DNA of 64,000 nt from an uncultured Planctomycetales bacterium (GTDB lineage: Bacteria > Omnitrophota > Gorgyraeia > Aquiviventales > Aquiviventaceae), in NCBI GenBank assembly GCA_964373175.1, contig CAYJTP010000002.1:40402-104401 (forward strand). Reading direction: 5' to 3'. This document shows positions 6,001 through 64,000 of this stretch, piece after piece (positions within the stretch are counted from its first letter, which is position 1; each line of letters starts with the position of its first letter). A model generated the notes under the pieces. It was not told where the DNA came from and did not search any database. It saw nothing but the letters and a program-made list of their open reading frames with translations. The position numbers and the translations under genes were made by a program.

Positions 6001-9000
6001 TCGTGATTGGCCCTGAAGCCATCCGCTTCCCTGAGGCGATTCGCATTGAGATCTTCAGGGAGGATCGGCTGGAGCGACACGGCGCCCATGAGCTCAAGCA
6101 CACCGTAGAAGTGAAGGATGGCCTCGGGAGGAACACCGAGACCCAGTTTGGCCCCGCGGCGTCCGGCGAAACCCTGGAGGAGAAATTCCGCAACTTCACA
6201 GCAGAGCGCAAACGCTACCAATTCTATTTCTTCGAAGGCGGGGAGGAGAATCTGGCCAAGTACGGCATCGCAGATAAGAGCTTGGTCACCGTCGTCCTCA
6301 ATGGCCAGGAGTACCTCGCGGCGTTGTCCAACGCCACAGTCCCTCTTGCCAACGGCGATATCGACTACCGGACGCAAAAGGGTGTGAGCATCGAGCCCTT
6401 AGACATCCAGACCTTGGGCAGCACCGAATGGTATGCCCAGTTACGGGCCTGGCTGATGGAACGGAAACTGCAGTTGGACGGAGTCGTCTTGTCCTACGGG
6501 GAGGTAAAGACCAATCGCGGCCATCTCAAGCTCATCCTCACGGGATTCACTAAGAGCCAACTGGATCCGACGACCCACTTTGCGAAGAAAGGCGAACTAC
6601 CCCGAGACGTGACCTTCCTGCGCTACAACGACGAGGCACTCTTGTTCTACCTGGGCATCCCAGAGGGCAGCGTGACCTACGCCTACGATCCAGAGAAGCA
6701 GTTTGACCGTGCCCAATACGGGGAGGCTGATGAGCTTGCCCGAGCCAACGGGTTCAGGATTCAAAACCACCTCATGGTGTATGACGTCCACTTCGCCAAC
6801 AAATCAGAAAACGAGGGGAAGAAGCATCTTCGAGAAATGGGCGTCCGGTTGGACGGGAGTCTCGCCTATCAGGTCGGTCGCGATCGGTTCGATCTGTGGG
6901 GTTTGGATTTCGCACGGCCTGGCCGGGAGTACGACGCGATCGTCTCCTACGACATCCGAGAACTCGCTGAGGTCACGGAGCCGCTTCCGGAAGAGACGAA
7001 CCGGATCACCGACTTAGCACACCTCCGTCTACCTGGCGCAACAGCGGGCCGGAAGATCCAGCACCTGAATATCGTGTTTAAGGATCATCCGGGCTATCTG
7101 ATCACAACCAACACGGTGGCCCAAGAAGATCGCGATTACCTCGATGCTTTCTCGGACCTCATCAACGGTCGGGAAGCCCATTACGACAAGGCCCGTCATC
7201 TCCTTGTCCTGACAGGCGAAGAGCCTACGGTGGTGCTGAACGCCAAAGCAGGCCGGGACGCCAAGCTGTTCTTCCAAGGCGAGGAAGTCATGACGAAACA
7301 AGATCAGTTCACCACCCATGTCCTGCGAGATGATGAAGGAAAGAAACTGAACTTCGTGAAGCGACTCTATGAGGAAAATGTCAAGCGCAACAGCCTCTTC
7401 TCGAAGATCGTCAAAGCGCTTCCCGTCATCGGGGCACTCACGTTCTTGACATCGTTGCAGATGTATGCTGGCGAGCCCGCTGTGCCTGGAGTGGGGGCAA
7501 GCCAACCCAACCTGTGGCTCTATAGCCTTGGGGTGATTGCCGCTTATGTGTTTGTGATCTTGCCAACGTTGATCGCCGGGTTGTATTTCCTCTCGAAGGT
7601 CAACGCCTTGTTCTTGAGACTGGTCGTGAATGTGAACAAACTGATCCAGAAACCGACCAACAGACCACTGGCTCCTGGGGTGAACCCGGCTGACTATCGG
7701 ACCCCTCGGTATCACGAGGTGAAGCGCAAGGTCGGAGCTGTGAGCATCATTCCAGAGCTGATCCTCTACCTGGTGAACAAGGGAGCTGCTGACACCGAGA
7801 TTGAGCTTCAACGAGACTTCTGGAGGGCGGTGATCGATTACCAGATGAATCGCAAGCTCGGGGGGTATCGCTCCAAGAACTCGCTGCTCACCGCTCGTCC
7901 GTATGTCTTGGATATCCATGAGATCTCCAGCTTCTTGAAGCGTGCTCGTCAACAGGGGATCGATCCGATGACAGATGTCCCAGTGAACGGTCAAACACTC
8001 CAAACCGTGATCGAGTCACGGGCATGGGACGAGGCAGTGATCGACCAGGTGACCCAGGCGATTCGAGCCTTCTTGAGGGCTGGGCGACAGCAAGAGAACG
8101 CCGAACGGAAAGCCGCCAGGCTCCGCGGGAAGTTGCTTGAGGAAACCCCCTATCCGGTTGGGGCTTGGAAGTTTTCCTTCAAGATCCTCCCTCGGATGTT
8201 GAACGTCATGTTCCGGACACCCTTCCGAGGGGAAAGGACGCCGAACCTCTGGCAGGCCTCCAAGTTTTTTGGACTCATCATTGCCGAGACGATCCTGTCC
8301 GCAGTCGGGTTAAGTGCGCTGATGTTTGTCTATACCGCTCCTGAAATCTCTGCCTTTCTGCCGATGCTCTTTGGCCTCATCCCATTTACCGCGGTCGTGC
8401 TGCTCAATTTCTGGACTGTGCTGTACCTGAACTATGCAAGCCTGTTTCGGATCGTTCGGGGTCGGTTGCATCTGGATAACGTCTCCACGTGGAGCAGCGC
8501 CCAGCGCGTGTTTCGGCAGCTTCGACGCCAGTTGAAGCCTCAACTGAGAGGAATCTTTGATGTGTTCTACCGGCATGAAATTGACAACCTGCGGTTTGCG
8601 AATGATCAGCCAGGGAGAGGGCCGCTCGTCAGTGAAGACGAGCACACCGCGTTGCTCCATGCCCTTGAGGGAGGCCGGTTAATCAAGCCCCAGACCTTCG
8701 AAGCGACAGAAACCCTCAAGCGATTCCTCAACAAATGGGCAAAGGTCCAGGCAGACTTTAATGCACACCCTGAAGAAATTGAAGCGATCCTGCAAGGCGT
8801 CGAAGATAACCGGGAAGACTACCGGCTCAATGTGATGCACTCAGGCTATGGGGAACTGGTGTGGGTGCATTTCGAGCAGCTGGATGTCTTGGCTGAAGAG
8901 CCTGGAAAAAGAGAGGTGGTCACAAAGTTCCGGAAGCTCATGATGGTGCACCCCGAGGAGTGGACCCTGTTCATTCACGACCGCGTTGGCAATCAGCTGA

Positions 9001-12000
9001 CCAGACAAGACGAACAATTCCTGTCACCTCGTCGCAGAAGCCTCACCGCTGAATCGGCCGCTGCGTATCTCGCCCAACGCTTAGGACAACCGCTCGATGA
9101 TATCAAGGAGCAAATCGAGAAATGGGCCAACTGGCGGTTGGAGAACGCTGGGAAGACTATCATCGCCACGATCTTTAGCCATCTGGAAACCTATAAGGCA
9201 TGGGCAGAGGTCCTAGGGATTCCTGAGACACAGAGGGAGGCGTGGGCACGAGCCAGGGTTAAGGTGGTGGTCAAATATGACGAGTATGGACAGAATCCAG
9301 GCCGAACCGCCGACTGGGATCATGTCAATCAACGCTTTGGCAACATCCTCACCACTGCAAACCAGACGTCCTATGAAGCCAGGGAGGCGGCCATATCGGC
9401 CTGGCATCACGATGATCAGCATGCGGCAATCCTTGTGGGAGCGCCACCTGCCGAGATGAGAGGACATGGAACTAAGGTCGGGGGGTGGGCGTTGGTCATT
9501 CCCTATTTGGATAGCGACCTTGTCTATTTCTTGGATATTGGCCATCGGTTGGCATTCGATAGTGTGATGTTCACGCCGTTCATTTCCCGACAATTTGAGA
9601 CCAATCAGTCCCTGGCCATGGTGTCGCCGGTCTACTACGCGTATGAGGAAAACTACACGTCAACGAGCCGGAGCATGAGCATTGGCCATGAGGTGTGGGA
9701 CCGGGATATCCGCTCTATCAAAGACGTCATCGATAGCGAAGACGACTGGGGCAAGAAGTATGCTCGTGTGAGCGCCTTCGAAGCCGTCAACGCGTTTCTG
9801 CCAGAGTACAACTCTGAGGATACCGCTGGCGGGGTGCGGATGCTCAAGCTTGGCTACGACATCCGCCACACGGAGCTTGTGGATGTTCCGCAGTCTGTGG
9901 AAAAAGTGCACTTCTTGGGACGCTCCTTTGTGCTGCGCTTTGGCTCAACGGTCCCAGAACTCCTGCTCGGCCGTCCAGTGTGGAAGTTTCTCGGGTCACC
10001 CTTTGTCCACTGGACCGCGAAGCTTGGCACATTCATCAGCTTTAGCCACTACCTGCGCATTGCCTTGACGGCGGTGACGATGGTGAGCTTTGTCGTGTTG
10101 AATATGTTCTTCCCCTGGTCCCTCTTTACGCTGCTCCCATTTGTTCCAGTGTTTCTGACGCTCAACTTCTTGGCGAACCAGGCGGTCAATGCTCAAACCG
10201 TGTATCGGTACGAGCAGCGCTATGGGCTCCTCAAGGGTCTGGTGATGTTCTACAAGGATTTCCCGAACCTCTTCATCGATTACGTGACCTACGAGGTCGG
10301 GAACTTCCGACAATTCCTTGAGGGCCTACGCGGGTTTGGAATGTTTACATTCAGTCCAAGGATTAGCAATCTCTACCGCCATACGTTCAAAGCCCTTTGG
10401 AATGAACCGACTGTACGGACAGGGGTCAAGCTGGCGGCATTCCTCACGCCATTTATCCTGCTCATGCCGCTGCATCCAGTGAAGCTCTTGCCCAACCTTG
10501 GCTTTGTCGTGGCGGTCGTCACGTGGTTGGTGGGGCCGTTTATTCGGAATGTCCGTACGCCGTTTTCCGTCAATCCCATTCAATGGGCTAGACAATTGGC
10601 GATGGATGTGTTGCTGGTGCCTTGGGCGTTGTTGCGTGTTTTTGTAGACATAGGAAAAGACCTGAAAGAGAAAGTAAAGAAATGGCACGCAGGCCAACAG
10701 CGGTTGAACGTCATGCTGAGCGTGGCTCCACTTCTTGCCTGGCCGATGCTTCACAGGGCTATGCAAACCTCAGGTGTGACGTGGGGCGATGTGGCGTATT
10801 ACTCGTTAATGGGTATCACAGCTCTGGCAGTGCTGGGATCGATTGCCTCCGCAATTTATGAGATGAGGTACCGAACAATCTATTTTCAGCACTATGGAGA
10901 ATACGAACTAGAATTGAAAGAGAGAGCGGACTCACATCCTCTAGTGAGAATCCTCGTGGGACTTGGTGTAGCTACAGCCGTTCCTCTTTTTATGGTTGCA
11001 GTTGATGGGGTTAACCTGTCGGTCGTCATGATGATCGGCATGATACTGGCTCTCATGTTTGGAATAAGGAACCTAGATACGTCACTGGGAGTGATCTGGC
11101 AAAGTCGTCCTCTCCAGGTTAAAGAGCTGTTCAAGACAACAATGCCATTTCTCTCCGCTGAGTTCAGCGATAAGTTGCTGGAACAGTTGTGGTATGTGAC
11201 GCGACCGTATCGTGACAACAAGGCAGCTCTAGATGCGATTGCAGAAATCATTAGTTCTATGACGGAGCCTGGACGGAAACTCAAACCTGACTACTTTAAA
11301 CGGGGTGGTAAGTACTACACGACTAAATGGTGGAGCCATGGATATGGGGCCTATGAAGAGTACGAGGAGGAAGTAAGTGAAGAGGAAGCCACTCTCCCTG
11401 AGGTAGTAACCATCCCTGATGTAGCTAAAATCACAGAACTACTTAGCCATCCTAATGAACTTAACCGATTAGTGGTGGAACGTCTCAAAACAGTACAACA
11501 GTTAACTTCCAATACAGATAGCTTGAGACATCGTGGTCGCGGTGAAGCGTCTCCTGGGGCGTCTGAGACCGGGAACACGAAGCACCCTGGGAAACGACAC
11601 CAGCGATATCCTGGCAAGGTTGAGCGGGTTGGCTCTGAGGACAAGACCCAGGACGTCCATGTGACTGCGACGGTCAGTCCTGATCGGAACATCGCCTTTG
11701 AGTATCCGCCTGACGCCACGGTGCTAACCCGCTTGACGCCCGAGGAAGAACAGATGGTCCGCCAGAGTCTCCAGAACTGGCTGGCGACGCTCGAGCATGC
11801 GCCGCCCTTGCAGGCGAGGCAGATTCCGCTGTTGGTCACCGACAATCTCGATGAGGTGGCCAGACATCAGGCCGGCAGAATCGAGATCAACGCCGCCATC
11901 CTTCGTGGGCCACCTCCTGGTGGTCCCGAAACCCCCCAAGACCGCCAACTCTTCCTGCACGGTGTGATCTATCACGAAGGCTATCACTTCCTCTCCCCGC

Positions 12001-15000
12001 GCGACTCAGAAGCCCAAGTCCAGCGAGCCACCCTTGACTACTTTAAGACCAGACGAGACATCCTCGTCGCGACGCGCCGGGTTCTCGATGCGAACAATCC
12101 AAACCTCATCACCGGACAGGAGTGGCTTTCCCAGCTCGACGAGCTCGAGCGAACGCTCCAGCTTCAGGATGGTGTCTTGGTCTTCAGCTTGGAGGGAGTC
12201 CTGGTGCCCTACACCCCGCAGCGCAAAGCTCGACTGGTTGACAGTCCTGTCTATCCAGAATTCATGGCGCTCCTCCGCAACGGGTTCCGGATCGTGGTCA
12301 ATGCGGGACACAGCCTTGAGAACGTGCTCCCTCAGATTCTGGATGGCCTGCCCGAGGCTGATAAACCGCTGCTGAGGAACCTGACCATCTATTTCAACCG
12401 CGGCACGGCGAAAGTGACGTTCAGGTCCTCTGGTGAACCAATCTTCGTTGAGTCCTATGCAAAGACGCTCTCGGATACCGACATCCCTAGGCTGCACAAT
12501 ATTCTCACAGAGCGCGTCAACGAGTATTGGAACTGGGTCCTGGAGGATCGTGATCGGTTCGAGCGGATGTTCCCGCGGTTCAGGCTCACCGATCCGCCGA
12601 GTCCGCCGAGGACTGAGTATCGTACATGGCAACCCTCTGCGTCGCAAGACCAAAACATGGGATTGTACAAAATGATGTTGTACCAATGGGGGTTGAAAGC
12701 AATGCCCTCTATTCCCCACGTGACACAAATCACGATTCTCCCATTCCCGTCCATAGAACTCGAAGGCGTTCCGGGAGCGACCGATTGGAGAAAAGCGTTC
12801 TTAACGCGTCTCCTCGAGGACCTCAAGGCTCAGGCTCCGGACTTATTGGAGCGTTACGATTTTATCCCTGGCGGGATCTATTCCATTGATATCGTCCGGA
12901 AAGGGGTGGGTAAAGATACACCGCTCAAAGAGGCCACGGCAGGTGTTGATCCTGGACATGTCCTGGTGGTCGCGAACACGGATCTGCATGGAGAAGGGGA
13001 AGGGGATTTGCCCTTGGGAACCCTTTCCTATCTCCAGCCCTACTCCGTGGGGGACATCAGCGATCTCCCGAAGGGATTCCGCACAGCTGGAATGGGGCTC
13101 TTTGCGACAAAACAGCTTATGCGCGAGGTCCTCAAAAACTATGACTATGCGAAGGCCCATCCGGAGCGTCCACCAACGAATGCGATCGGCACGGTGAAAG
13201 AATTCCTCCGCAAGCGACAACAGGCGATTTATGACATGTCGTGGTCCCCGACGATTGAAGGAGCGGTCCAGCAGTTCAACGCGTGGAGGAACCAACAGGC
13301 GACCCAAGGGAAGTCACCGAGCCGGGAGGACCAAGAAGACTATGTTCGGGGACTCTTTCAGACCTATCAACTCAATCGACTGAAGGGGTCGCCCTGGACG
13401 GACCTTTACGCACGAACACTTGCAGAACGCATGCACGCACAGACAGCCATCCGCACCCTCTTAAAAGAGCTCACCGCGGTCGATAAAGCGGAGCAATTCT
13501 ATGCACTGGTCGACGCAATTGACCAGCGCATGGGACTACGGAACGAACTGAGCAGCCAAGATTTCTGGGAGTACTACAAAGCAGTCGATCCCCGTGTGAT
13601 CCTAGCCCTCCGACGCCTCAAACAGATCACCGGATACGATGAGCATCGGCTTCGGGACGAGGTGATTCGCGAGGTCGCAGCATCTGAGAGGTCTCTGGGG
13701 CATGCGTTGAGTGTGCCACGGGTTTTGGTGAGCTACGCGGGTGATCGGATGGTCTTTCCGGCGATCAAAGCAAGCCCTCACAAGCCGCATGTATCTCCGA
13801 GCCAATACATGTATGTCGGTGGCGGGGGACCGGCGGCATCGTTCCTCATCCAAGGATGGATCCATCAAGCTCGCCAACGTGGAGAGCTGGCTCCAAACGA
13901 GCACGTGACAGATGTCACACTCGATCGCACCAAGCTGGGGCCTGCGGTCATGACGGTGGCCACGATCACGACCACCTTTGATGATGGGGGAGACTCGAGG
14001 AATTTCCTGCTTGGCTTTCTCGAAACCCCTCCCTATGAGACCTACTTCCTCCCGCCGGGAGACATCTCCGTCATGCTGGGCTTTGCGACGGATGATCCTG
14101 CGAAGCTCTGGTTTCTGCACTATGCCGACAAGAAAGAAGGACGGATCAGCGGTCGTGCAATTGCTCCGATCTGGCTCAAACGCCTCAAGATGATTCATGA
14201 AAAAATTGAGAATGGCCTATTGCCCCGTCCACCGGATTGGCTGGCCTTCGTCAACGCCGCGATGACGCTGGGTGATCTGTTGGATCGCGAGCTGGTGGAG
14301 CGGAACGTGGTGCATCCATCTCGATCGGAAGCGCCTCCAGCTCAAGCACGAGGGAGGGAGCTTCTGTTCAAAGACGGCAGCAGCCAGAATTTCTTCACGG
14401 AGGCTGCTGCGGGCTTAGACACCGGGGCGCTGATCCCTGGCGATGAACACCTGATCCGCGGGTTGTTCGATCCCTCGCGCTTGGATATCGACCATCTCAA
14501 GACTCTGCTGGGCATCCGCGATGCCCACGTCTACCCGGTGAGCCCCGATGAAGCTACGCTCGTGGCCCTTGATGAACAGGGCCACACGGTGGATCAAGAC
14601 ATGCACGTGACCCTTGGGGGCCGTATCTATCCAGTCCACCCTGCCGAGGAACAGACCGGCATTAGTGACAAGGCGCATGTTGGACGAATCCACCAGGTCA
14701 TCTTTCGAAAGCGGGTACCTAAAAAAGAGGAGAAAACGAACGTCATTTCTTATTCCTATCGCCAATTGAGACCTGAAGAGATACCAAAAGCGACCAAGGA
14801 GGAACTAGAGGGTATTGCGCGAGTTCTACAGGTGATTGTCTCCGGGCTGGGGAGTTCCTTCACGAGCATTCTTCCTGACCTGATGGTCCAAGGGGTGGTG
14901 GAGGCGATCATGGAGCGGCAAGACATCCCCCGCATCTATGTCGCCAAGATCAAGAAAGACCTCGAGACCTCCCAGCTTGATGTAATCGGGAAGACCTTGC

Positions 15001-27000: not shown

Positions 27001-30000
27001 CGAGCTTAGAGGAGATTCGATCCCGCCCAGGAGGTCTTTTGGTGCGCGTGGAGAATGAACCGCTTGATGAACAGGTGGTGCTAACCGACCGTTTGCAATT
27101 CCGCCAGGGGGACATGGCAAGGGACTTGTACACCGACCTAGCGGGTCGTGTGAACGTTATCCGGCATGCGAATGTATTGCATTATCTCAGCGAGGAGGCG
27201 TTCCAGCACACGATCGAAAACGTGTTTCGCTACGCTCAAGCTCGGCCCCAGGGACTGTTGTACCATGTCGGGAAAGCAGACATCAGTGATCCCGGCTTCC
27301 TTGATCAACTGATCTTTGATATCGGTGGGCAGTCGGCACGTGATTGGAGGTTAGTGTACGCTGGCTACCTCGGCTCAGGCTCAGCAAAGGAGCACAGCCC
27401 AGAATTTGCGCCAGAGCAGCTCATTGCCAAAGAGGAGGCCATTTCGAAACGGGTGCTCGCGATCCATCAAAAAGCCCTTGAACTTTCGGCGCATCTGCAT
27501 GGTGGGCAACTTGACGAGGCACTCGATCGCTTTGGCCGACTGCGCCAAGAGGCGCAAGACCAGCTCATGCAGTTCCTGTTTTCAGCGCATCCCCGAACCA
27601 TTTCTGAAGAGCTGACGCGTACAATCCTCCAGGACATCTTGCTGATCAGCCCATGGACACGGCATAGTGAATACACTGGCAGTTATTACCGTGATCAACG
27701 GGTCATGGTTCCACACGAGCTGGGGTGGCGGTTTGTGGAGTTACCACGAGACCTCAACGACCTCCTCGACGAACTTCTTCAGCTATTAACCACTCGTGCC
27801 TTTCAAACTCAGGGTCAGACCCCCGACAGTCACAGGACGGAACTGCAACACGCGCTCTTCAACGCCCTCACCGACATTGAGCTTAAGGCACAACCTGTCG
27901 AACCTCGCCAGGCTCCAGTCTATCGAGTGCCTGTTGGTAAGCTCAGCGTCCAACGGCTCCACGAAGCCGCAGCTTCGGTGCGCGCGCAGGTCACCGAAAA
28001 AGAACCGGTGGGGTTTGTTGAGCTACGGCCTGAGCACCTGGCCGACCTTGAGACAGCGCTGGCCAATTCTGACCTCACGCAGGCGCTTGAGGAACTTCGC
28101 GATGATCAACAGGTGAGGGTGCTGCTGGTTGCCAGCGCACAGGACCTTCACACTGACCCGCTTCACCGGTTGCACCGGCGCTTGGGTGAGCTGGGTATCC
28201 AGATTGCGCCCCCCATTGCTGACATCGAGCGGTTCGCGGATGACTGGCCGCCGGAGTGGACGCCGGAAGGACTTTCCCCTGAAGACTTGGCCGATGGCGA
28301 GGCGTACCACCGCGCGCTGTATCACGATGGGGATGTCAACCGACCAGTGAGCTGGCATGAGGAAGAAAGTCGCAAGCTCATCGAGCGGGCCTTCCGCTAC
28401 ATCAAGGATGGTGACGTCGTGGTGGACTACGGCACCGGAACTGGCGGCTCAGCCATCGAACTCCTCAAGGCGCTGGATGAGCGTGGGATCAGGGTTACGT
28501 TGGTCTGTGTGGATCCGCTGGCCTCGTGGTTTAGCAAGGCCTGGCAGTTACTCCACCATCGCGCCGATGTCCAGTTCTACTCCCTGTGGGATCCAACGAC
28601 GCGCAAGATGCGTCCACTCACTGAAATCCTGGGTTCCCACAAAGCCAACGTGATCGTCTCGGGCAGTACCTTCCACCTCATCCCCCAGAAAGCCTTTGGC
28701 CGAGCAATGCAAGACCTTGCGGATTCGCTGGTGGATGGCGGCGCGCTCCTTTGGAACAGCGGAGACATCGCCCTTGAGGGGGGCAAGCGTCCAGAGGACG
28801 CGGTACTCCTTCACGATCCCTATCGATCCATGCGGAAGGTGGCGATAGAACGGGTGAACACCGAGGGGGAATTCGCGACGCTGCGAGCCTCGCTCACGGA
28901 GGATGAACGCAAGGCCGCTGAAACGCGTGCCAATCGGATCTTTCCTCCGCAACCTCTGACAATCGATCAGATCCGGCAAGCCTTGACCGCAGCCGGGTTT
29001 GTCGACGGACGAATCACCCATGAACGGATCGAGGTGCTGGATGAGGATTCGGTTCAGTTCATCTCAACGGTCCCTCGGCTCCTGGACTTCCTTAGCGAGG
29101 TCCAAGATCCCAGTGTTCGTCAGGGGGTTATCAAGCACGTCATGCGCGAACAGGTGCTGCCCGAATTTCACAAGCAGCCAGCCGGCACCATCGAGGGGAT
29201 TCAGACATTCTGGACGTTCGGGGAGTTCATCAAGCCCGTTCTTGCGCCAACCAAACCTGAAACCGGTTCACCCGATCGGTTTGCCAAGGGGCAACCGGTA
29301 CCAAGTACCGAGGGGTCAGGTTCCGCCGCGCCGCCAACTGAGACAGCCACCATCGACTGGACCAATTCTCCGGTGCTCACTCAGCAGGAGCTGGCTGACC
29401 GCCTGAATGAGCCGGTCCACAACGTCCTGAACCTGCCAGGCTTCGCAGGCACGTTCAGGGTGGGAGACTTGTTGGTTCGTTCCCCGCAGGAGCGGGAGGG
29501 TTTTGAGATTGTTCAGCTCGCCAGCGGCAAACTCGTGCTGCGCTACAACCAGACGATCGTCGGGGGCAAGGCGGCTGAGCCGTCCGACATCGACGCGTTG
29601 TGGGAGGCACTTCGGGCCAAGGATCATAAGCGGACGCAGGCACTCATCAAGCAGCTTCACAAGCAACCGGAGACCTGGGTGTGGAAGGTGCACAAGCGCA
29701 CGGTGACCAAGATATCCGAGCGCATTGGCAAGCTGGGCCAGGAGCTTGGTCTTGACGAGCAGCACGCCGATGCGTTGGTTGTGACTGCTTCAGAGCTTAT
29801 GAATAACATCGCGCGTCACGCTGAGAAAGGGGTCGTGGTACTGCGTAAGGTCACGGTTGACGGGAGGGTGGGTGTTGAGGTGTTGGCGCTCGACCGAGGC
29901 CGAGGATTGCCTGAAGCGAGGAAGTTGGAAATTCTCAAAGGGAGGTTGCCGCTTGATTGGCAACGTCAAACAGGTCGAGGGTACGCGATCATCACGAATT

Positions 30001-33000
30001 ACAAGAACGTCCAGCACCTCATCGACGACTTGCAGGTCGACTCTCGGCCAGGCGAAGGTGTGAAGGTCACTCTCCGAACCCGGCTGCCTGTTGACACCAC
30101 AAGCAGGGCAGAACAGCAGTTCTCCGAATATCCACTGCAGGGAGGCGCCACCCTGCGGACGCGTCTTGCCGTGGAAGAGGTGAAACGCTTGCGCACCGGG
30201 CACGTGGTGGTCGCCGATGCCGCGAATCAGTTGAGGCTGGTGATTGAGTTGCCTAGCCTGCTTGGGAGCGTGGGGACATCCCTCGCACTCGCCAATGAGC
30301 TCCTTGGGACAGATCTTGTTCAAGAGATCGCTGACCGAGCAGCCAGGGATCCCAATCGAATCGTGACGGTTGTGGACTGGGGTTGTGGCAATGGGAGTAC
30401 GTTGAGGGAGCTTGCCACAGCCCTGCACCAACGCGGGATCACCAACGTCAGGCTGGTGGGATTTGCCAATATGTACTTTGATGAGTGGCAGGAGGCCCCC
30501 TCGAACGTCACATTCGTGCTCGATACGGCTGATCATCTTCTCAACTATTTCTCAGAGGGAGAAGTCGATCTGATCTACAGTCTCAGTGGACTGAAATACT
30601 TAGCCTGGCGAGCCTATCTCAAGCATCTGAAACAGCTTCGCTCCAGCCTCCAGCCAGACGGTGTCATCCTCGATGCTCCTAGGAGGCTCATGCTCTTCTA
30701 TCAATTCGGCCTTCCCATGTTCAAGGTGAGTAAGGTTGGTGTTGGTCGTCTTGGTGCTCGACTGACTCCAAAACCCACCTCTGTCTTCAAGGAAGGCGTG
30801 TTCAGTGATGGCCCACTGTCAAATCCTCCGCTGCGGAGATCTTTTGAGGGCACCTATTCCAGACCGGATCAGCCGCTGACCTTCGGCGCAGACTTCGGGT
30901 TTGGCCAGTTTGTTGAGCGCCTCAGGGACTTGTGGCGGCGGCTCATGCCGCGGCTGGCCAGGCGAACGACCCCAACCCAGCTGACGTGGCAGGCCCTGCA
31001 GCCGTTTGAGCGGATCTTGCTGGTCGATGATCGAGCGATGGTCTTGGCTTCGCTGTTGGCGTTCCTCAGAGCGCGCATGCCGACTGCCTCGTTTGACGTG
31101 GCCCGCGACCGGATGGAAGCGATCGCAACACTCACCGCTTCTCAACAAGCTGGCACACCCTTCGACCTGGTGGTCACGGACTTGAAGATGGGAGACGATC
31201 TGCTCACGATGCCTGTTGAACAGAAGCAGGGCGGCAAGCTCATCGCAGACATCCGGAGGAGCGCGTCGCTCGGTCGTCAGCCACGCATCGTCGTCTTGGC
31301 GGCTGGTGCGGCGAGCGAGGCGACGACGTTGCAACGCCTTGGAGCCGATGCGGTCGTGGATAAGCTTAGCGATGGATTCCTGGATCAGCTGTGGGAAACG
31401 ATCACCCACCTGCCCGATGAGGCCCTGGCGCGGGACACGGAGGAATGGCTGCGTCAGCATGCGACGGACAAACGCATCGACCCAGAACTCATCCGGCTGC
31501 AACGGGAGTTCCTGGAGCGCCTTCGCATCTTGCGAGAAATCAACAAGGAGAGGCAGCAGCCTGGAAGCGGCAACATCCACAAGATCGCCCTCGTGAGCAA
31601 ATTGCAAGGCCAGGCGAAGAAAGGGGCTGCGCTGTTGAGAATGGCCCAGCACGAGGGGATCGACTTCATGTACGCGCTTGGCGATGTGATTGGTCGTGGC
31701 GAGAAAGCCCACCTGCTGTTACGGACGATCCGGGCCTGGATGCAGCAACACAGGCCTCCTCACCTCGAGCTCCTCATCGGGGCGAATGAAGCGAAATTCA
31801 TGGCAGCGATGATGGGCCATCCGAAGTTTTCATCCCGCTTCCTCGACCCCATCGGGGGCGGACGAGCCCTGCTTAAAGAGGTGGGGGCCACGGAAGAGAC
31901 CTTCCGGTTCAATCGACAGCTCGTGGAGGATCTTCGCTTCATCCAAGACCATTTCCTGCTCTTTGACTATGACCTCGTGCATGGGGTGGGCATGGGATTT
32001 AGCTATCCGATCAATGACGACGGTCAACTGGCCGTGAACTTCTTCGGAGAAACAGGACCGCAAGCCCTGGCGAAGATCGAGGCGAGTATCCGGGCTTCGA
32101 GCAGTCTCAAAGGGTCTGTCCTGAACCACCTGCTGGCACTCCTGTTTGCCTTGGAAGAGAAACAGGCCGCTTCGCTGCCGGTGAAAGCCAAGGAACTGAT
32201 CGACGGGAAGCACACGACGATCGACGAGCTGCTTGAACACTTCAAAGTGCTCGGTCAAGGACATGAGCTGCTGCGATTTGTCCTGACAGAACCGAAAGAA
32301 GGAACACATCTTGCGCTCTTTGGGGATCGGGTCATCGGCATCATGGATGGAGCAGCTCATGAAGCGGACAGCGTCTTAGTGCTGGGGGGCGAAGGGATCC
32401 GTTGGTGGACGTGGAACGCCAAGCACGGGCGGTACGACCCGGGCAACGAGGTGCTTGAGGGCGCGACCTACCTCAACCAATTGGAAGGCCTGCACAAGGG
32501 CTGGATTGAGACCCATCGAACAGAAATCGCGTGGCGAAAGGAAGCCGCTGAGCTAGCTCAGAGCTCGGGGTGGGTCGATGAGCTGATCCGAAGGGTCAGG
32601 GACTTCCTCTCAGACCGCCTGCGCGCCTTCCGCTATGACCGGCGCAGCGACTACTATGTGAGCCGATTCATGAACCGGATGTATCAGGAAGGCTGGTACA
32701 TCGGGCGGGATGGCATCCTGCAACAAGGCATATCCAAGCATGAGCCGTCTGAGGCGTACCGGCAGCTCTTCAAAGCCGCGGAAATCCAAGCCCTTCATGG
32801 GAATATCATCCTGAATCGCAAGACGGGTGAGGCCGCCTTCCTCTTTGCGGATGAGAAAACAAATCCAGGACAACCGGATCTGTCCTATGTGACCTATCTG
32901 CTCCTGAAGAAGAACCCCGACCTCGTCTTGGTGGCTGATGACATCGCCCGGGCGTTTACACTGGGAGGGAAACTCTACGGAGGAACGCTGCCCTTAGTGC

Positions 33001-36000
33001 ATATCGGACAGGACCTGGTGGCGCTCGACTACAAGGATGACACAGGATTGCTGGTCGAACCGATGCTGGATGGCAAGCCGATTGTCCCGCAAGAAGGATT
33101 TGTCCCGATGACGAAAGTCATTTGGCTGAACTATGGCCGTGAGCCAGCCATGTCTCGCCAAGACATCATCCGGCGCATCTTGCGATCCCAAAAAGACCGG
33201 CACCATGTGTTAAGTCGTCGCTTCCTCAGAGGAGCCGTGGGACTGGAGGTTGAAGAGGTTCGGGTACCGCAATACAAGGTGTTTGAAAATGCCGCGAAAA
33301 TCGTGGCTAGAGATCTCCAAGGACTCTTTGATGAACACCACCCCCACCCGTTCTTGGGTCTTCGGCGGTGGGCGAAGATCGTAGCGCGGATCTTCAACCA
33401 GCCCCAGCCGTACCAGAAGTGGGAAGCCAAGGTCCTGAGGGAGAAGACCGCAACGCACATCCCGTTGATCCAGTTCCTTCGATCCTGGCTGAAAGTCGTC
33501 TTGTGGGTCGGCGTGGGCCCCTTTGCGAGTGTCACGCTCGCTATGCTCACCGGGATGGGAGGACGGGATGCAAAGCAGCCAGAGCCGCCGACCCAGCCGA
33601 GACGCCTCCTTGTGGTTGATGACAATGCCGCTGTGTTGGAGAAGGTCAAAGCCGCGCTGACGGCCCAAGGCTACGAGGTGGAGACGGCGCAAGGGGGCGA
33701 TGATGCACTTGCGCTCTACCAAGAGGCTCGAGACGCCGGCTGGCCGTTTGCCGCGGTCGTGACGGATCTGGCGATGCCGCCGCAGATGGATGGGATTCAG
33801 TTGCTCTCGGCGCTTCGACGACTCGATCCGACGTTGCCCATTGTGTTGCAGACATCAGAGACGACTGACGTCATTTTCCAGAAGCTCAAAGTGACAGATG
33901 GGGCGGACAGCGCAGACCAAACCAAGGGCCTCATCATTATGAAGAAGGCGGATGAGCATCTTGACAAGCTCGTGGGATTGCTGGCTCAGCTCCTCGGACC
34001 GACGACACTCCAAAATCCGCAGCCTTCCGCTGGCCAGGTATCTAGGTCTGTAGTTGATCAGTATTTGTCAGCAGAGGAACTTCAGCGATTCCAGGCGATC
34101 CGGGAGCTTCGGGAACGCAACCGAGGTGCGCTGTTCCACAAGGTCTTTGGACAACCCGATGCGCCGCCTGTGGCGTGGGGCGATCTCTCGCCAGAAGACG
34201 AGGTGCGCTTTGCGATCTGGGACTCAAGGATCTTGGATTCCCACAAACGGATGCATCGCGAAGAGCGCCAAGCCCTCATCGACATCTTGGCGAAGCGCGG
34301 GAACCTTTCTGACCATCTGCTGACCCTGTTGGACTCACAGTCCCGGCAAGTGAGCCGGCGTGCTCTCTTGGCGTTGATGGATCCCACCTTGCCAGTCAGC
34401 CGTAAGCGAAGGCTGATCCAGGCGCTGGAGCGCTTGTTCCATCGCTATGAGTCCTCTCCGCTTGAGCCGTTCTTCATCATCAAGGCGATGGAAGGTCAGG
34501 GGGCGGTGGGAGCGCTCAAGCGGATTGTCAAGGAGAGTCCTTCATGGCGAGCGGATGCGCAAGCGGCCCTCGAGCACATTCGCGCCTGGGAACAACCCCG
34601 TCGATTGGATGGCCGATTTGACAAGAAGCCGGGCGGAGACTGGCAACATGTGCTCACCGCCATGCTGTGGCACCCCGATCTGCTGGTGTCGGCTGAGACG
34701 GGCAAGCTGACGATTGCGAAATACCGAGCAGTGGACAGCACCGTGGAGGAATCCACAACCCGGAGAGATTTTGCCGACCTGGTACGGCTTGGCTACCTCA
34801 TCCCCGATGCTTCGACCAAGCCCTACACCTATCGCCTGGATTTTGTGCGGCTCCAAGACTATGACCCTGAAGCCCGGCAACGAGCCCAGACCATTCAGCT
34901 TGAGAAAGACATAGTCTCAATGCTGGTTGACGCGCTGACTGACCAGCTTGAGCAGCCCCTCGGCAATCTGGAGGGTCGCGTGCTCCTCGTTGGATCCCGG
35001 TACAGTCATGCCCAGCTTGCCGAACTCGCCCGGACGTTCCACAACGCCACTGTGGTTGGGATCGGGCAGCATCAGGGGCGGCTGGACATGATCAAGAAAA
35101 TCCTCAAGGCGTGGTATCCAGACCTCTGGCCTCGGATTGACCTGCGGCACGCCCCTGCCCACGATCTCCACGGCGTGATTCCGGATCGGTCGATGAAGCT
35201 GGTGATCGTGCCGACGGCGCGTGAACTCTTCGACGAGGCTGGCAACCCGCCAAGGCTGCGGCGCCTGCTGTCCGAGGCGGTCCGGGTGCTTGAGCCAAAC
35301 GGGGTTCTCCTGGCCGGATTGGGGCACCTGAGTCTCTCGCGGCAGATCCTGACAGACGAACTGGGGATGGAGGACCTTGATTCGGCCCGGCACCATCCCC
35401 TGGTGCTGCTCTTCAGGAAACCCGCTGCGAACACAACCACATCAGGTGCGCACACAGGATTTGTCCGCCGCGTGATTCTGCTTGTTGTGGTGGCCCTCAT
35501 GGTCCTCGTCGGCGCGCCAAAGGCCTTCACGCAGACTCTGGTCCTGGATCGGACAGAGCAGATCGCCCAGGGTCAGACCCCTAGGGCAATCACCAAATTG
35601 CAAGTTCCAAATAAGTTCCAAGCTCCAATCACCAATCACCAAACGCGGGACACGGTTTCAGAGACCACCACGCCCGCGGCTCAAGACACCGCGATCGTCA
35701 ACGAACTGGTACGGCGCGGGTTCACCGAAGATGAAGCGAAGATGGTGATTGAGGAGCAGCGGCTTCTTGTGCAACGCGTAGCCCCGCATCTGTCTGAGGA
35801 AGAACTCCAACAACTCCATTGGCACACCTATCCGAAGAGCGCGGGGACGCTGCTTCAGCGGTCACTCAGGACAGTGATTGAGTTGGGTGTCCTGGCTGGG
35901 CTGTGGGTCTGGTATCTTGTCTGGTCGTGGAGATCCATCAAGCGAGACCGAGGGAAGTCGCTACCCCCAGGGCTCATTTTTGGAATCGGCCTGTTGATGC

Positions 36001-39000
36001 TCACCTCAACAATGATAGATCCAGTGACCAAGCCAGGTGGGTTTTCCGACACCTTGAACAAGCGCATCTTTGTCACAAGCGGTTGGGCTTCTTCGAAGCT
36101 CTTCCGGGCCTTAGCGACTCATGAGACAGCCCACCAGCTCTATCCTGTGGTCCTCACTGGGATCAACCACGATGTCATCTTCGCATTGGGGAACCTGCGG
36201 CTCTTTGAACTTGGCGCACGGGAGCTCGCAGGCTCACCCTTCTTGCCGACGAAAGGTGCGTCCGCTACGAGAGCCTGGGAACTGGGTCAGCAGACGAACA
36301 ATCCTGGCAACGCCTGGCTCTACCTGCGCCTGATCGCGGAAGGCAAGACGCCTGAGGAGGCCGAGGCGATCGTGCGCTCAGGTCGGCCGTCTTCGCAGGG
36401 TATTCAGGGTTCGGCAGCGCAAGCTCAGGGTCAGACCCCCAGCACAAAATTTGGCGATTTTCCCGCACAGGGTCTGACCCCAAGCCTCCCTCAAGCGAAG
36501 CCGAGGAAGCTGACGGAGGCCGATAGTTTGTTCATCGATGCGGAGGCGTGGGTGAATGGCATCCACACGTTCAAGGTCGCGGGTGCTTACCTGCAGGCGG
36601 CAGCGCGTGCATCCCTGCGCGGCTTTCTCCTCAATATCAGAGAAGCTGTGGCAGATCAAATGGCCATTGACACGAGCTTGAGCCAAGTCTATTCCGACGT
36701 GGCCAAGGACGTTGAAGAAGCCCTCGACACAACTGAGCAGTGGGTCAATGCCCCACGAACCGTTCGAGCCATCCGTGCGTGGGTGAAGGAACTCCGTACG
36801 CTTGCTGACCAACCTGACATGGCAGGACCTGTTCCGGATAGCCTCAAAGTCCAGTTGCTTGAACAACTTCAGGGGCAGCTCCGCAGACTTGCAGATCAGG
36901 TTCCGATTCGGCCGTTGCCGAAAGCGCTGCGACCCCTCCGGCCTGAACGACCTAATCCAGACCCGTGGTGGCTTGATGCGCCAGAGCTGAAGCAACCAGA
37001 GCGCCCCGAGGAATTCAAACATCGCCAACCGCAGCCGGATTCAAGCCGCCAGGTTGAGCCGAATCGCAAAGACTCTGGCCGTGATCTCCTCCTGCCGTTG
37101 TTCCTGGGTCTTGGCCTTATGTGGATGGGAGTAAGAGGAAAACACTCATACCCAGGCGACGAAGTGATCAAAGAGTGGATCACGCGATATCAGGCCAACG
37201 CCTCTGCGATCGCTAAGGGTGAGAAGAAACATCGGACCACAATCAGGCGCTGGATCAAGCGTTTTATCCAGAGCGACCCAGCGCAACGTGAGCAACGTCA
37301 ACAATGGGTTGACGCACTTCGAGAACAAAGGGATGATCCAAGGGATAAGTACCCTGGTGATGTTCAGATGAAGGAACTGATCCAGACGTACCAGGCTAAC
37401 ACCTATGCTCTTGCCAAAGCCAAGCACGTCAGTCAGTCCACTGCGTCTGAGTGGATCAACCGTTATATTCGGGGAGAGCCTAGCCAAAGCGGCAAGCGTC
37501 TTGCTTGGGTCAATACGCTTCGGAGACAAAGAGGCGCCCTATACGACCTGTACCCAGGCGATCGTAAGATGGAAAACTTACTCCGCACATACCGGGCGAA
37601 CAGCCGCTTTCTCGCTGAGGTTCTGAATGTCAGTCCCACCACTGTTTGGAGATGGATCAGGCGGTATGTTCAGGCCGATCCTCGCCAACGCGACAAGCGT
37701 TCTACCTGGGTCGAGGCGCTTCGAAGACAAAGGCGTCACGAGCAGAGGGATGAGTACCCTGGCAATCGTGAGATGGAAACATTGATCCGCACACACCAGG
37801 CTAATAGCGCTGCGATTGCTAGGGCTGTGCACGTCCATCGCACCACTGTTTGGAGATGGATCAAGCGTTTTATCCAGAGCGACCCAGCCCGACAGGAAGA
37901 ACGTCAGCAGTGGGTCGAGACACTTCGAAGACAAGTGAGTTACCCAGGTGACTCGAAGTTTGAGCGGTGGGTTTACGAATACGAGGCAAACGGGTTGGCT
38001 ATTGCCAAAGCCACCAGGGCTCATCCTGCAACCATTCACGGTTGGCTCAAGCGGTATATCCAAAGCGACCCGGAACATCGCGCAGCGCTGGTGGACCGTG
38101 TCAGAGCTCTTCGGCCAATCCTTCGCAGATGGAGGCGGTGGTTTACACGCAACTATCAAGGGCTCGGAGAGGAAGCCTACTACCAGCGCACGATCCCCGC
38201 GCTGATCCAACATTGGGGAGAAGACGCTAAACGGCTAGACCAAGCGTTAGGAGTCATTCTCACGAAGGGCCTTGAGGCTCCCCACAACCAGATCGATGGC
38301 TACTTTGCTGAACCCATCCCCGCGCTTCTTGAGGCTCACGCAAAGCAAGACCTCTCAACATTCGAGCGCGGTGTGGATGACGCTGTTGCTAAGCTGCGCG
38401 CAAACCGGACCACAATAAAACGCACGGCACATCTTCAACCAGTCACCCGTCGCGGATCCGGCACCCTCTTTTTTGAGGCGGGCAGCGCGGTGCTGGTGGG
38501 CTCGACGGCGATCGCACTGCTTGCGCTGGTGGTGCCGAATTGGGTTGTCCTTGCTCTTCTTGGCGTGTTCGGGGTGGCGGCTGCGCTCTATACAAAGTGG
38601 GTGATCTGGTTGGCGAAACAAGGGTTCGGACTCTTCACCAACGAGCAGCGTCTTGGCCGTGTGGATTATCCAAGGATTGTGGGCGCTGCTGCTGTCATCA
38701 CGATGGTGACGGCTGGGACACTCAGCATGCCGACGGCTGTGGCGGTTGTGTGGATGGTGCTGCTCTTGAGTGTGCTGTCAGCCCTTTCAGCACATACACT
38801 CCGCAATCTAGTAGAGACAGTCCTGGAAGACCATCTCCCCACCGTTGAGTGGGAATCGCTATCACGGAAGTGGAAACACGACGAGCAGACTATTGATACC
38901 ATTTCCTACGCTGGAAGTTTGATTGGACTGTTCGGCGGGGCTTATCTTTACTCCTCCTTCTTCTTCTTGTGGCTTTTCTATATGATGAGTGGCTTCTATG

Positions 39001-63113: not shown

Positions 63114-63169
63114 GGGGTCAGACCCTGTGCGGGAATTTTGTCAGTTTTCGTGCGAAGGGTCTGACCCTG
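63114..63169. repeat. REP-like palindromic element ~50 nt after the giant ORF stop
   Basis: The arms gggtcagaccc (63115-63125) and gggtctgaccc (63158-63168) form a stem of about 12 bp with a ~30-nt loop. No U-tract follows. It is the same family as 36423-36480, in the opposite orientation. Confidence 0.75.
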
Positions 63170-63253: not shown

Positions 63254-63282
63254 TTGACAAGCTTTTTGAAAGATATTATTAT
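63254..63282 (+). promoter_or_regulatory. Sigma70-like promoter for the downstream gene
   Basis: TTGACA (63254-63259), a 17-nt spacer, then TATTAT (63277-63282), within an AT-rich patch. Confidence 0.55.
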
Positions 63283-63360: not shown

Positions 63361-64000
63361 ATGGGGAAGTCGAAGACAGGACGGCTTGGCATCTGGGCTG
63401 TCGTGTTCTTCTGCAGCGTGTTCCAGATCAGCCTAGCGGGTTCTAAAGTCGAGGCGGCTCAGACGTCCCAGGGTCTTCTGGACGCTTCCGATCTCGCCAT
63501 CCCCGAAGATCTTGGTTACGTGGTCGAAACTCATCGGCCAACCCCTTCCACCTCGTCCCATCCTGCCCTTGTTATCCACATCCAAGAAGCGCACACCAAC
63601 TACGAAGGCCAGCAGCACCTCGCGGGGATTCTCGAGCATCTCATCAAGCAGTACGGGCTTCGACTGATCCTCGTGGAAGGGGGGCAGGGGGATGTGGGCC
63701 TGTCCTACCTGCGCAGCTACGGTCCCCCAGAGACTCGCAAACAGGTCGCTGGCAAATACCTGAAAGCCGGCATCCTGAGCGGGGAGGAGTACTTGGATAT
63801 GGTCTCCGACTATCCGCTCATTCTCTGGGGGGTGGAGCAGCAGGATCTCTACCAGCAAAACGTCGAGGCGTTCCTGAAAGCCGAGGAAGTCCGGGATTCC
63901 CTGAAGCCCCTAGTCGCTTCGGTGAGGGAGGCGATCGAGCTCGTCAAACCCAAGGTGCAGGACCCCGCCCTGCAGGAGCTGGACACCAAGGGCCAGGCGT
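63361..64000 (+). CDS. Secreted hypothetical protein (3'-truncated by the window edge)
   Basis: The ATG at 63361 is preceded by AAGAGG 9 nt upstream. My hand translation is stop-free to nt 64000. The N-terminal 'MGKSKTGRLGIWAVVFFCSVFQISLAGSKVEAAQ' looks like a Sec signal peptide. This ORF is absent from the ORF track, presumably because no stop falls within the window. Confidence 0.65.
   Translation, partial: MGKSKTGRLGIWAVVFFCSVFQISLAGSKVEAAQTSQGLLDASDLAIPEDLGYVVETHRPTPSTSSHPALVIHIQEAHTNYEGQQHLAGILEHLIKQYGLRLILVEGGQGDVGLSYLRSYGPPETRKQVAGKYLKAGILSGEEYLDMVSDYPLILWGVEQQDLYQQNVEAFLKAEEVRDSLKPLVASVREAIELVKPKVQDPALQELDTKGQA

Follow-up and report, generated by a model that had tools for sequence, protein, structure and literature searches.

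Signaling domains within a giant Omnitrophota-type reading frame as two candidate regulatory units

The signaling domains analyzed here lie in a 64,000-nt stretch of contig CAYJTP010000002.1 from the assembly GCA_964373175.1 (the whole of this stretch is called the window below), within one giant open reading frame (ORF). The segment in question encodes, in order, an RsbW/SpoIIAB-like ATPase of the HATPase type, a methyltransferase, an atypical receiver domain (REC1), a module of about 650 residues built from degenerate enzyme folds, a hydrophobic stretch, and a canonical receiver domain (REC2). Two regulatory units placed side by side describe the segment better than a single partner-switching or two-component pathway does. 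That these form a genuine phospho-signaling domain cluster, carried by a giant membrane-associated protein of the multi-enzyme kind known from Omnitrophota, is the interpretation that we tentatively favor, at somewhat less than an even chance. Since the window yielded no STAS, PP2C, DHp, HPt, or HPr domain, the segment qualifies neither as a partner-switching module nor as a two-component system, and it is not a member of the SypE family.

The giant ORF is on the plus strand and spans positions 3 to 63065, with at least 21,014 codons; it runs off the left end of the window and stops at 63065. The ORF listing gives 21 to 63065 (21,014 residues), and the same frame is free of stop codons from nucleotide 3. 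Between 20 and 45 kb, no ORF in the other frames exceeds 297 residues. All the signaling modules are therefore in cis in one uninterrupted frame, parted by low-complexity or hydrophobic linkers, and each module that the initial annotation had listed as consecutive on one polypeptide is present.

The ATPase, the methyltransferase, and the first receiver

The kinase-like domain (29565 to 30107, plus strand, including an N-terminal helix extension) is of the RsbW/SpoIIAB type, that is, a GHKL ATPase of the serine-kinase or anti-sigma kind, by its sequence, its motifs, and its predicted fold. The initial annotation had placed such a domain at 29745 to 30085; HATPase_c_2 matches at 29697 to 30077 with 33.4 bits (Pfam cutoff, 27.4), and HATPase_c matches the same domain with 27.1 bits against a cutoff of 26.4. 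The ATP-binding boxes are intact: the N-box is ELMNNIARHA (29793 to 29822), the G1-box is LDRGRGL (29889 to 29909), and the G2-box is TGRGYAI (29970 to 29990), and all three align with those of SpoIIAB and RsbW. The strand and helix that precede the N-box also align with these two proteins and not with a DHp domain. With seven homologs as input, AlphaFold2 (AF2) gave a model with a predicted local distance difference test score (pLDDT) of 87 and a predicted template modeling score of 0.82. When this model was compared with the PDB by Foldseek, the top 13 matches were SpoIIAB, UsfX, and RsbW (E values of 2.6e-8 to 4e-6), and the catalytic domains of histidine kinases ranked below these 13 anti-sigma kinases. 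In NCBIfam, the domain matches an RsbA-family anti-sigma model best. Its closest small relatives are fusions of HATPase_c_2 with SpoIIE (PP2C) and a stand-alone RsbW-like protein of 136 residues. Judged from its residues, the domain is apparently a competent serine-kinase-type ATPase.

Next to the kinase-like domain is a class I S-adenosylmethionine (SAM)-dependent methyltransferase (30150 to 30797, plus strand) with the SAM motif VVDWGCGNG at 30369 to 30395. The methyltransferase of the initial annotation is thus confirmed by a Methyltransf_25 match of 72.8 bits (30369 to 30663). It is 46% identical to the C-terminal methyltransferase of protein P0001, and it is the module matched by 138 of the 152 proteins retrieved, 53 of which have at least 1,000 residues. 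At 30051 to 30140, the HATPase domain has VKVTLRTRLPVD as its last strand; a near copy, GGATLRTRLAVEEV, comes 20 residues later, and in P0001 the strand copy is kept before the methyltransferase as GGATLRTRLSPEEV. The near copy could be what is left of a second HATPase C terminus or a conserved lead-in to the methyltransferase.

REC1 (31005 to 31448, plus strand) belongs to a rare and atypical receiver subfamily. It has the pair of acidic residues (DD, 31026 to 31031), the acceptor Asp (31179 to 31181, in VVTDLKM), and the conserved Lys (31362 to 31364), and directly after the acceptor Asp it carries an insert of nine residues. Homologs of REC1 were found in four other large proteins with identities of 37 to 53%, and REC1 was aligned with P0005, P0015, P0089, and P0090 as well as with CheY and Spo0F. 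The acceptor Asp and the Lys are kept in all five members of the subfamily, and the insert is common to all of them; the position of the switch Thr is occupied by Ala in three members and by Ser in two. Conservation of the acceptor Asp, a check that the initial annotation had proposed, therefore holds for every REC1 homolog found. That annotation was to fall if the receiver acceptor residues were not conserved or if the HATPase-like segment failed fold recognition, and neither is the case because the HATPase fold was recognized and the REC1 acceptor Asp is conserved. When metagenomes were scanned with a REC1 profile, 41 loci were found, all of them generic receivers (28 to 45% identity) and none of the REC1 type.

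The pseudo-enzyme module, its relatives, and the second receiver

Directly C-terminal to REC1 is the module that the initial annotation had called metallophosphoesterase-like with substituted metal ligands (31570 to 32360). The substitutions are as described, and the homologous unit is larger, with about 650 residues at 31419 to 33389. Its N-terminal half (31419 to 32460, plus strand) is a metallophosphoesterase-fold domain with a degenerate metal site. Pfam gave no match for the window copy. In a profile search of the PDB, the phosphatase-like half matched SapH with an E value of 0.022 and ApaH with one of 1.6; NCBIfam gave ApaH with an E value of 0.01, Pfam Metallophos matched the homolog P0004 with an E value of 0.01, and Foldseek on a poor AF2 model of the module (pLDDT of 43) listed SapH and RLPH2 with probabilities of 0.97 to 0.98. 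Because these several independent weak signals agree, the predicted metallophosphoesterase fold of this half is a sound assignment. The idea that the module is a divergent class 3 fructose-1,6-bisphosphatase, an enzyme of comparable length with a "GNHD..G" context, was rejected, since Pfam FBPase_2 covers only motifs II and III, with an E value of 0.056 in two relatives, a likeness at the level of the superfamily.

Metallophosphoesterases of the PPP/ApaH/PrpE type (RLPH2, the PnkP phosphatase, ApaH, lambda phosphatase, and SapH) bind their metals through the motifs GDxHG, GDxxDRG, and GNH[ED]. The window copy has SKLQG (31596 to 31610), GDVIGRG (31680 to 31700), and GANE (31779 to 31790) instead, so that the Asp and His of motif I are replaced by Lys and Gln, the second Asp of motif II by Gly, and the Asn-His of motif III by Ala-Asn. 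With the ligands of motifs I to III replaced, the sequence predicts that a dinuclear metal site cannot form in this domain. The relatives have SD[AP]EG, GD[VL]IARG, and G[AG]NE; the window copy alone has lost two acidic residues (Asp to Lys and Glu to Gln) that their SD[AP]EG retains.

The C-terminal half of the module (32688 to 33296, plus strand) is probably a P-loop-derived domain like that of HPr kinase/phosphorylase (HprK/P), with FADEKTNPGQ at 32844 to 32873, LVADDIARAF at 32928 to 32957, and GGTLPLVHIG at 32979 to 33008. Foldseek on the module model lists HprK/P catalytic domains at low probability, and the register found by hhalign is the one seen by eye ("LxADD...G..P"), with a score of 21 compared with 13 to 14 ± 2.8 for shuffled profiles, whose maxima are 26 to 28. 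A PDB profile search of this half gave no match. The Lys of the Walker A motif GxxGxGK[ST] is absent from every member of the family (FADEKTNPGQ in the window, IGDEKENADQ in P0004). A paralog of this half encoded at locus L009 weakly matches the Walker A loops of AAA+ proteins, and its own Walker-A-like loop, GPRGVGVS, has Val instead of Lys. The HprK/P link is thus not established by sequence alone. We consider it likely, if well short of assured, that the C-terminal half is HprK/P-like and catalytically dead, and the strongest contextual argument for this reading is that all stand-alone carriers are fused to HPr. Because both folds have lost key catalytic residues, the module is described here as a double pseudo-enzyme.

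The relatives in question are few. P0004 (925 residues) aligns to 95% of the module with 40% identity and has two C-terminal HPr domains; a near-identical copy, L005, is found in the Omnitrophica metagenome-assembled genome (MAG) G01_MAG_00006. P0006 (1,614 residues) is a further member with one C-terminal HPr, and the gene directly upstream of it (L009) encodes the paralog of the C-terminal half alone (28% identity; E value, 2e-9), again with HPr at the end. HPr is therefore C-terminal in all four stand-alone carriers, which are fused to HPr and not to RsbW-like or REC domains. In the window, a hydrophobic segment and REC2 occupy the place where the relatives have HPr. Searches of a word-indexed protein database with the module as a single sequence or as a profile returned only P0004, and a metagenome scan with the module profile found no relative. 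The relatives P0004, P0005, and P0006 and the L009 sequence 3 to 2264 share a motif, [RSE][DE]DGG[x][KR], at every domain boundary (for example, VRDGGVKR, RKDGGSKS, AEDGGKK, SEDGGAKR, SRDGGAK, and SSDGGQKR). In these relatives the motif could act as a linker or mark a site of processing.

Between the module and REC2 lies a hydrophobic segment (33459 to 33563, plus strand), a possible single membrane helix, in which the Kyte-Doolittle 19-mer maximum of 1.85 falls at 33495 to 33551. The transmembrane segment of the initial annotation therefore stands as a hydrophobic stretch (33495 to 33563), and its status as a membrane helix is only possible. REC2 (33609 to 33950, plus strand) is a canonical receiver, with DD at 33618 to 33623, the acceptor Asp at 33765 to 33767 (VVTDLAM), the Thr/Ser position in LQTSET (33846 to 33863), and the Lys in IIMKKA (33933 to 33950). 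It matches Pfam Response_reg with 60.9 bits (33609 to 33887), and many NCBIfam response-regulator models match it with E values of 1e-11 to 1e-7. Both receivers thus have the acidic pocket, the acceptor Asp, and the conserved Lys of two-component receivers, and the two that were first proposed at 31008 to 31370 and 33600 to 33990 are upheld.

REC2 is followed by about 320 residues without a match and then by a weak methyltransferase (21.4 bits); the region from 34050 to 35099 has no sequence match in the PDB. About 270 residues after REC2 (34830 to 34960), the sequence TIAKYRAVDSTVEESTTRRDFADLVRLGYLIPDASTKPYTYRL looks winged-helix-like by eye, which neither Pfam nor the PDB sequence search supports. 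Two HTH_23 matches (42 bits) lie at about 37593 to 37880, on the C-terminal side of REC2 and separated from it by approximately 1,200 residues that include two or three further hydrophobic segments. They are the nearest DNA-binding matches, in agreement with the initial view that no DNA-binding output stands beside the receivers. DNA-binding motifs are odd in a membrane-tethered giant protein.

Missing partners, recurrent pairs, and rival explanations

The initial annotation labeled the set partner-switching or two-component-like, having seen no DHp and no STAS domain. Their absence was borne out by Pfam, phmmer, and motif searches of the window, and the labels themselves could not be retained. 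Pfam detected no HisKA, HPt, STAS, or SpoIIE/PP2C domain anywhere in the 64-kb window, and no sigma factor was found there; phmmer searches of the giant ORF with SpoIIAA, RsbV, HPr, the DHp of EnvZ, and the HPt of ArcB gave no match; and the phospho-Ser motif of STAS proteins, [FMLIV]D[ST][ST][GA][LIVM], does not occur in the giant ORF. Partner switching of the RsbW-RsbV-RsbU or SpoIIAB-SpoIIAA-SpoIIE kind is therefore represented in the window by its GHKL kinase, with no STAS antagonist or PP2C phosphatase, and a two-component system or phosphorelay by the receivers, with no phospho-His donor of the DHp or HPt type. The order of kinase and receiver is that of SypE/HsbR-type proteins, and since neither PP2C nor STAS was found in the window, the segment was not assigned to that type.

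To see what recurs elsewhere, 1.84 billion cluster representatives were searched exhaustively with HMMER. The sole protein that shares two of the modules is P0005 (1,266 residues), which, like L005, comes from Omnitrophica MAG G01_MAG_00006. It has a REC1-type receiver at the N terminus (50% identity to REC1, encoded at locus L006) and the same RsbW-like domain at the C terminus (36% identity), in the order opposite to that of the window; a tblastn comparison with L006 covers the HATPase region from 29565 to 30074. Between the receiver and the kinase, P0005 has GDPGP1/DUF4922 and HAD domains where the window has the methyltransferase. A HATPase domain is present in three of the four other REC1-type carriers and is a strong histidine-kinase-type HATPase_c in P0089 and P0090. 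The recurrence of the RsbW-like and REC1-type pair in P0005 argues for functional coupling. Because this pair recurs there and the module recurs with a C-terminal HPr in its stand-alone relatives, the segment splits into two recurrent units. In a word-indexed protein search, the whole segment matched nothing but P0001, the methyltransferase relative, and two generic hybrid kinases. At locus L006 (GCA_947085655.1, 577 to 8384), P0005 is followed, with overlapping stop and start codons, by a 1,335-residue protein with HEAT, HATPase_c, and GNAT domains and then by a V-type ATPase operon. In the MAG as a whole, the module types that are fused in the window are spread over medium-sized multi-domain proteins.

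From the domain identities, the status of their residues, their co-occurrence, and the single frame, we infer a scheme in which all the phosphotransfer steps, the docking, and the regulation of the assembly are conditional. Unit 1 would consist of the RsbW/SpoIIAB-type ATPase or serine kinase and the atypical REC1, with the methyltransferase between them. SypE and HsbR of Pseudomonas are response regulators in which an RsbW-like serine kinase, a receiver, and a serine phosphatase are combined and the phosphorylation state of the receiver sets the prevailing activity. By analogy with them, REC1 phosphorylated on its Asp by a donor encoded outside the window may gate the RsbW-like domain, either in its kinase activity or in its binding. 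Unit 2 would consist of the metallophosphoesterase fold and the probable HprK/P-like fold, followed by the hydrophobic segment and REC2. The dead phosphatase and kinase folds might serve as a docking site that reads the phosphorylation of the attached phosphocarrier domain (HPr elsewhere, REC2 here), and the docking signal might be relayed to neighboring enzyme modules of the giant protein. The initial suggestion of internal regulation of the assembly is at present part of this scheme, and the phosphatase-like module is not a counterpart of the kinase: it belongs to a separate family of about 650 residues whose stand-alone members are fused to HPr, and the window copy has lost the acidic residues of its relatives. 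We regard as rather unlikely the most specific form of the proposal, in which a dead PPP/ApaH-like phosphatase and HprK/P-like fusion is a reader or holder of phosphocarriers, HPr-fused in ordinary proteins and wired to receivers beside an intact RsbW-type kinase in the giant protein, the whole being an in-cis circuit that switches enzyme modules.

Several observations weigh against a coupled signaling cluster or against the assignments on which it is built. REC1 scores 29.4 bits against Pfam Response_reg (E value, 9e-7; 31014 to 31367), just below the cutoff of 30.2, and has Ala at the switch Thr position (VLAAGA, 31293 to 31310); it was accepted as a receiver despite the score because the four homologs back it. 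The window yielded neither a STAS domain nor any other substrate for the RsbW-like kinase, and no DHp or HPt phosphodonor for the receivers. If the single segment at 33495 to 33563 spans the membrane, as its hydrophobicity allows, REC2 would be separated by the membrane from REC1 and the kinase. In the databases searched, no more than three distinct members of the module family (the window copy, P0004, and P0006) were found, its AF2 model is poor, and the hhalign comparison of the C-terminal half with HprK/P gave a P value of about 0.02 and a probability of about 2%. The replacement of HPr by REC2 is a matter of position only, because the two folds differ. No protein among the cluster representatives has more than two of the modules of the segment, and adjacency within a mosaic of unrelated enzymes may lack functional meaning.

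This last point leads to the possibility that the modules act independently or on their immediate neighbors and that their adjacency has no circuit logic, which deserves serious consideration even if we think it on the unlikely side. Unrelated enzymes are strung together along the entire ORF, long proteins of this kind are described as mostly sequence-unique with shuffled architectures, and in the related Omnitrophica MAG the modules are separate and on different contigs, the full set being found in no other protein. However, the REC1-type receiver and the RsbW-like domain travel together in P0005 despite their reordering and the different enzymes between them, and in the stand-alone forms a phosphocarrier domain always follows the module or its C-terminal half. 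It is also conceivable, if quite unlikely, that true partner switching occurs in trans, the RsbW-like domain phosphorylating or sequestering a STAS protein, and possibly a sigma factor, encoded elsewhere or upstream in the giant gene, with REC1 as the input as in SypE-SypA or HsbR-HsbA. The SpoIIAB/RsbW fold and motifs would fit this, as would the RsbW-PP2C fusions among the nearest small relatives, which are typical of partner-switching loci, and the succession of kinase, receiver, and phosphatase-like module, which mirrors SypE. The 64 kb of the window nevertheless contain no detectable STAS protein, PP2C, or sigma factor, and the phosphatase-like module is of a different fold, lacks the metal ligands, and is associated with HPr elsewhere.

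Cleavage of the translation product, by which the arrangement in cis would only deliver stand-alone regulators at a fixed stoichiometry, appears very unlikely to us. The low-complexity or hydrophobic linkers between the modules, the DGG motif at every domain boundary of P0004 to P0006 as a possible processing site, and the C39/S8 peptidase domains that might cleave giant proteins (10.1101/2023.11.21.568195) are compatible with it, yet DGG was rejected as a processing signal in the window, where the ORF has 7 occurrences versus 5.8 expected and none at a boundary, and Pfam detected no peptidase domain in the window. A cryptic two-component relay in cis is highly unlikely. It would require that the HATPase be the catalytic domain of a histidine kinase that directly phosphorylates REC1, REC2, or both and whose DHp is too divergent to detect. 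HATPase_c does score above its cutoff, histidine-kinase catalytic domains come next after the anti-sigma kinases in the fold search, and in P0089 and P0090 the REC1-type receiver stands alongside a histidine-kinase-type HATPase_c, but the top structural matches are all anti-sigma kinases, the strand and helix before the N-box are of the SpoIIAB/RsbW kind and not of the DHp kind, and neither Pfam nor phmmer found HisKA or HPt. Two regulatory units, an RsbW-type kinase with REC1 and a pseudo-enzyme module with a receiver, remain the interpretation that we prefer.

The giant protein and comparison with known systems

The remainder of the giant ORF is a mosaic of enzyme, signaling, TPR, and hydrophobic modules. 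Pfam identified CofD, cytidylate kinase, HAD, NAGPA, ROK, several methyltransferases, HATPase_c_2, the two receivers, the two HTH_23, acyl-CoA dehydrogenase, transaldolase, TPR, a GT4 glycosyltransferase, and an alpha/beta hydrolase, and a hydrophobicity scan showed dozens of hydrophobic segments, about ten of which cluster at 7527 to 11066. The first 4,600 or so residues of the ORF (21 to 13820) have no Pfam match, and at their beginning the motif RFGI[TS][LV]S[QY]LANP[RK]K is repeated. The first residues resemble internal repeats and not an N terminus; because of this and the absence of stop codons from nucleotide 3, the sequence indicates that the giant gene probably continues upstream of the window. 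Shortly after the stop codon there is a 12-bp inverted repeat, GGGTCAGACCCT ... AGGGTCTGACCC, at about 63116 to 63168. Downstream of it are a near-consensus sigma-70-type promoter (TTGACA, 17 nt, TATTAT; 63254 to 63282; 11 of 12 matches) and the next gene, which starts at 63361 with the signal-peptide-like opening MGKSKTGRLGIWAVVFFCSVFQISLAGS.

The protein has the properties of the giant multi-enzyme proteins of Omnitrophota ("Archaeovorin-type" or class 1 multi-enzyme proteins), which were described in a 2023 preprint by West-Roberts et al. and in a 2026 preprint on complete genomes: at least 10,000 residues, many distinct enzyme domains, and multiple hydrophobic segments. It shares with them an ORF of more than 10,000 codons and a content of methyltransferase, GT1/GT4, HAD, ROK, HATPase, receiver, and TPR domains along with many hydrophobic segments. 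REC1, the HATPase, and the module have their best relatives in Omnitrophica MAG G01_MAG_00006 (GCA_947085655.1) and in GCA_964374045.1, which has the same synteny; an exact 41-mer of the window had no match in the GTDB species genomes. Giant Omnitrophota proteins have methyltransferase, HATPase_c, HAD, ROK, GT1, and receiver domains among their most frequent domains (10.1101/2023.11.21.568195; 10.64898/2026.06.07.730766), and the long proteins, of which 5,761 with at least 10,000 residues are catalogued, are mostly sequence-unique, with shuffled architectures (10.64898/2026.06.07.730766). Both preprints warn that transmembrane predictions in such proteins are ambiguous (10.1101/2023.11.21.568195; 10.64898/2026.06.07.730766).

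The presence of signaling domains (methyltransferase, HATPase, and receiver) in these proteins is thus already published (10.1101/2023.11.21.568195; 10.64898/2026.06.07.730766). As far as we have searched, the two preprints, which are domain censuses only, mention neither the cassette described here nor the REC1 subfamily with its insert nor the family that combines metallophosphoesterase, HprK/P-like, and HPr domains (10.1101/2023.11.21.568195; 10.64898/2026.06.07.730766). Published work on the control of giant Omnitrophota proteins stops at such censuses, and the segment provides specific entry points for experiments: a serine-kinase-type ATPase that is apparently competent, two receivers whose acceptor sites are intact, and a rare pseudo-enzyme module with HPr-fused relatives. 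If these parts communicate, the protein would carry phospho-switches of its own, and giant multi-enzyme proteins would then seem to be regulated assemblies and more than passive fusions. The link of a metallophosphoesterase fold and an HprK/P-like fold with HPr would constitute a new branch of HPr-centered regulation in an uncultured phylum.

Compared with known systems, the kinase-like domain is like the anti-sigma serine kinases SpoIIAB, RsbW, and UsfX in its predicted fold, N-terminal extension, and ATP-binding boxes; however, those are dimeric proteins of about 140 residues, whereas the window domain is fused into a giant protein. The probable HprK/P-like half differs from HprK/P by the missing Walker A Lys, its profile similarity to HprK/P is not significant by HH-suite, and where HPr would be expected as the partner, the window has no HPr and a receiver stands at that position. 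RssB, in which a receiver is joined to a catalytically inactive PP2C-like domain, acts as an adaptor by binding and not by catalysis. A receiver beside a pseudo-phosphatase is the logic that the module may follow, although the window has another phosphatase superfamily and no ClpXP or sigma-S context, and an adaptor role is proposed by analogy.

The closest known architecture is that of SypE from Vibrio fischeri, in which a central receiver is flanked by an RsbW-like serine kinase at the N terminus and a PP2C phosphatase at the C terminus (PMC3610818). Common to both is an RsbW/HPK-like kinase N-terminal to a receiver and followed by a phosphatase-type domain on one polypeptide (PMC3610818), and the N-box Asn that SypE requires for its activity is present in the window domain. 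However, the SypE phosphatase is an active PP2C whose target is the STAS protein SypA, whereas the window has a metallophosphoesterase fold without ligands, a methyltransferase between kinase and receiver, and no STAS protein that we could find, and the set is internal to a protein of more than 21,000 residues. By analogy, it is SypE and HsbR that the segment most resembles in its possible function.

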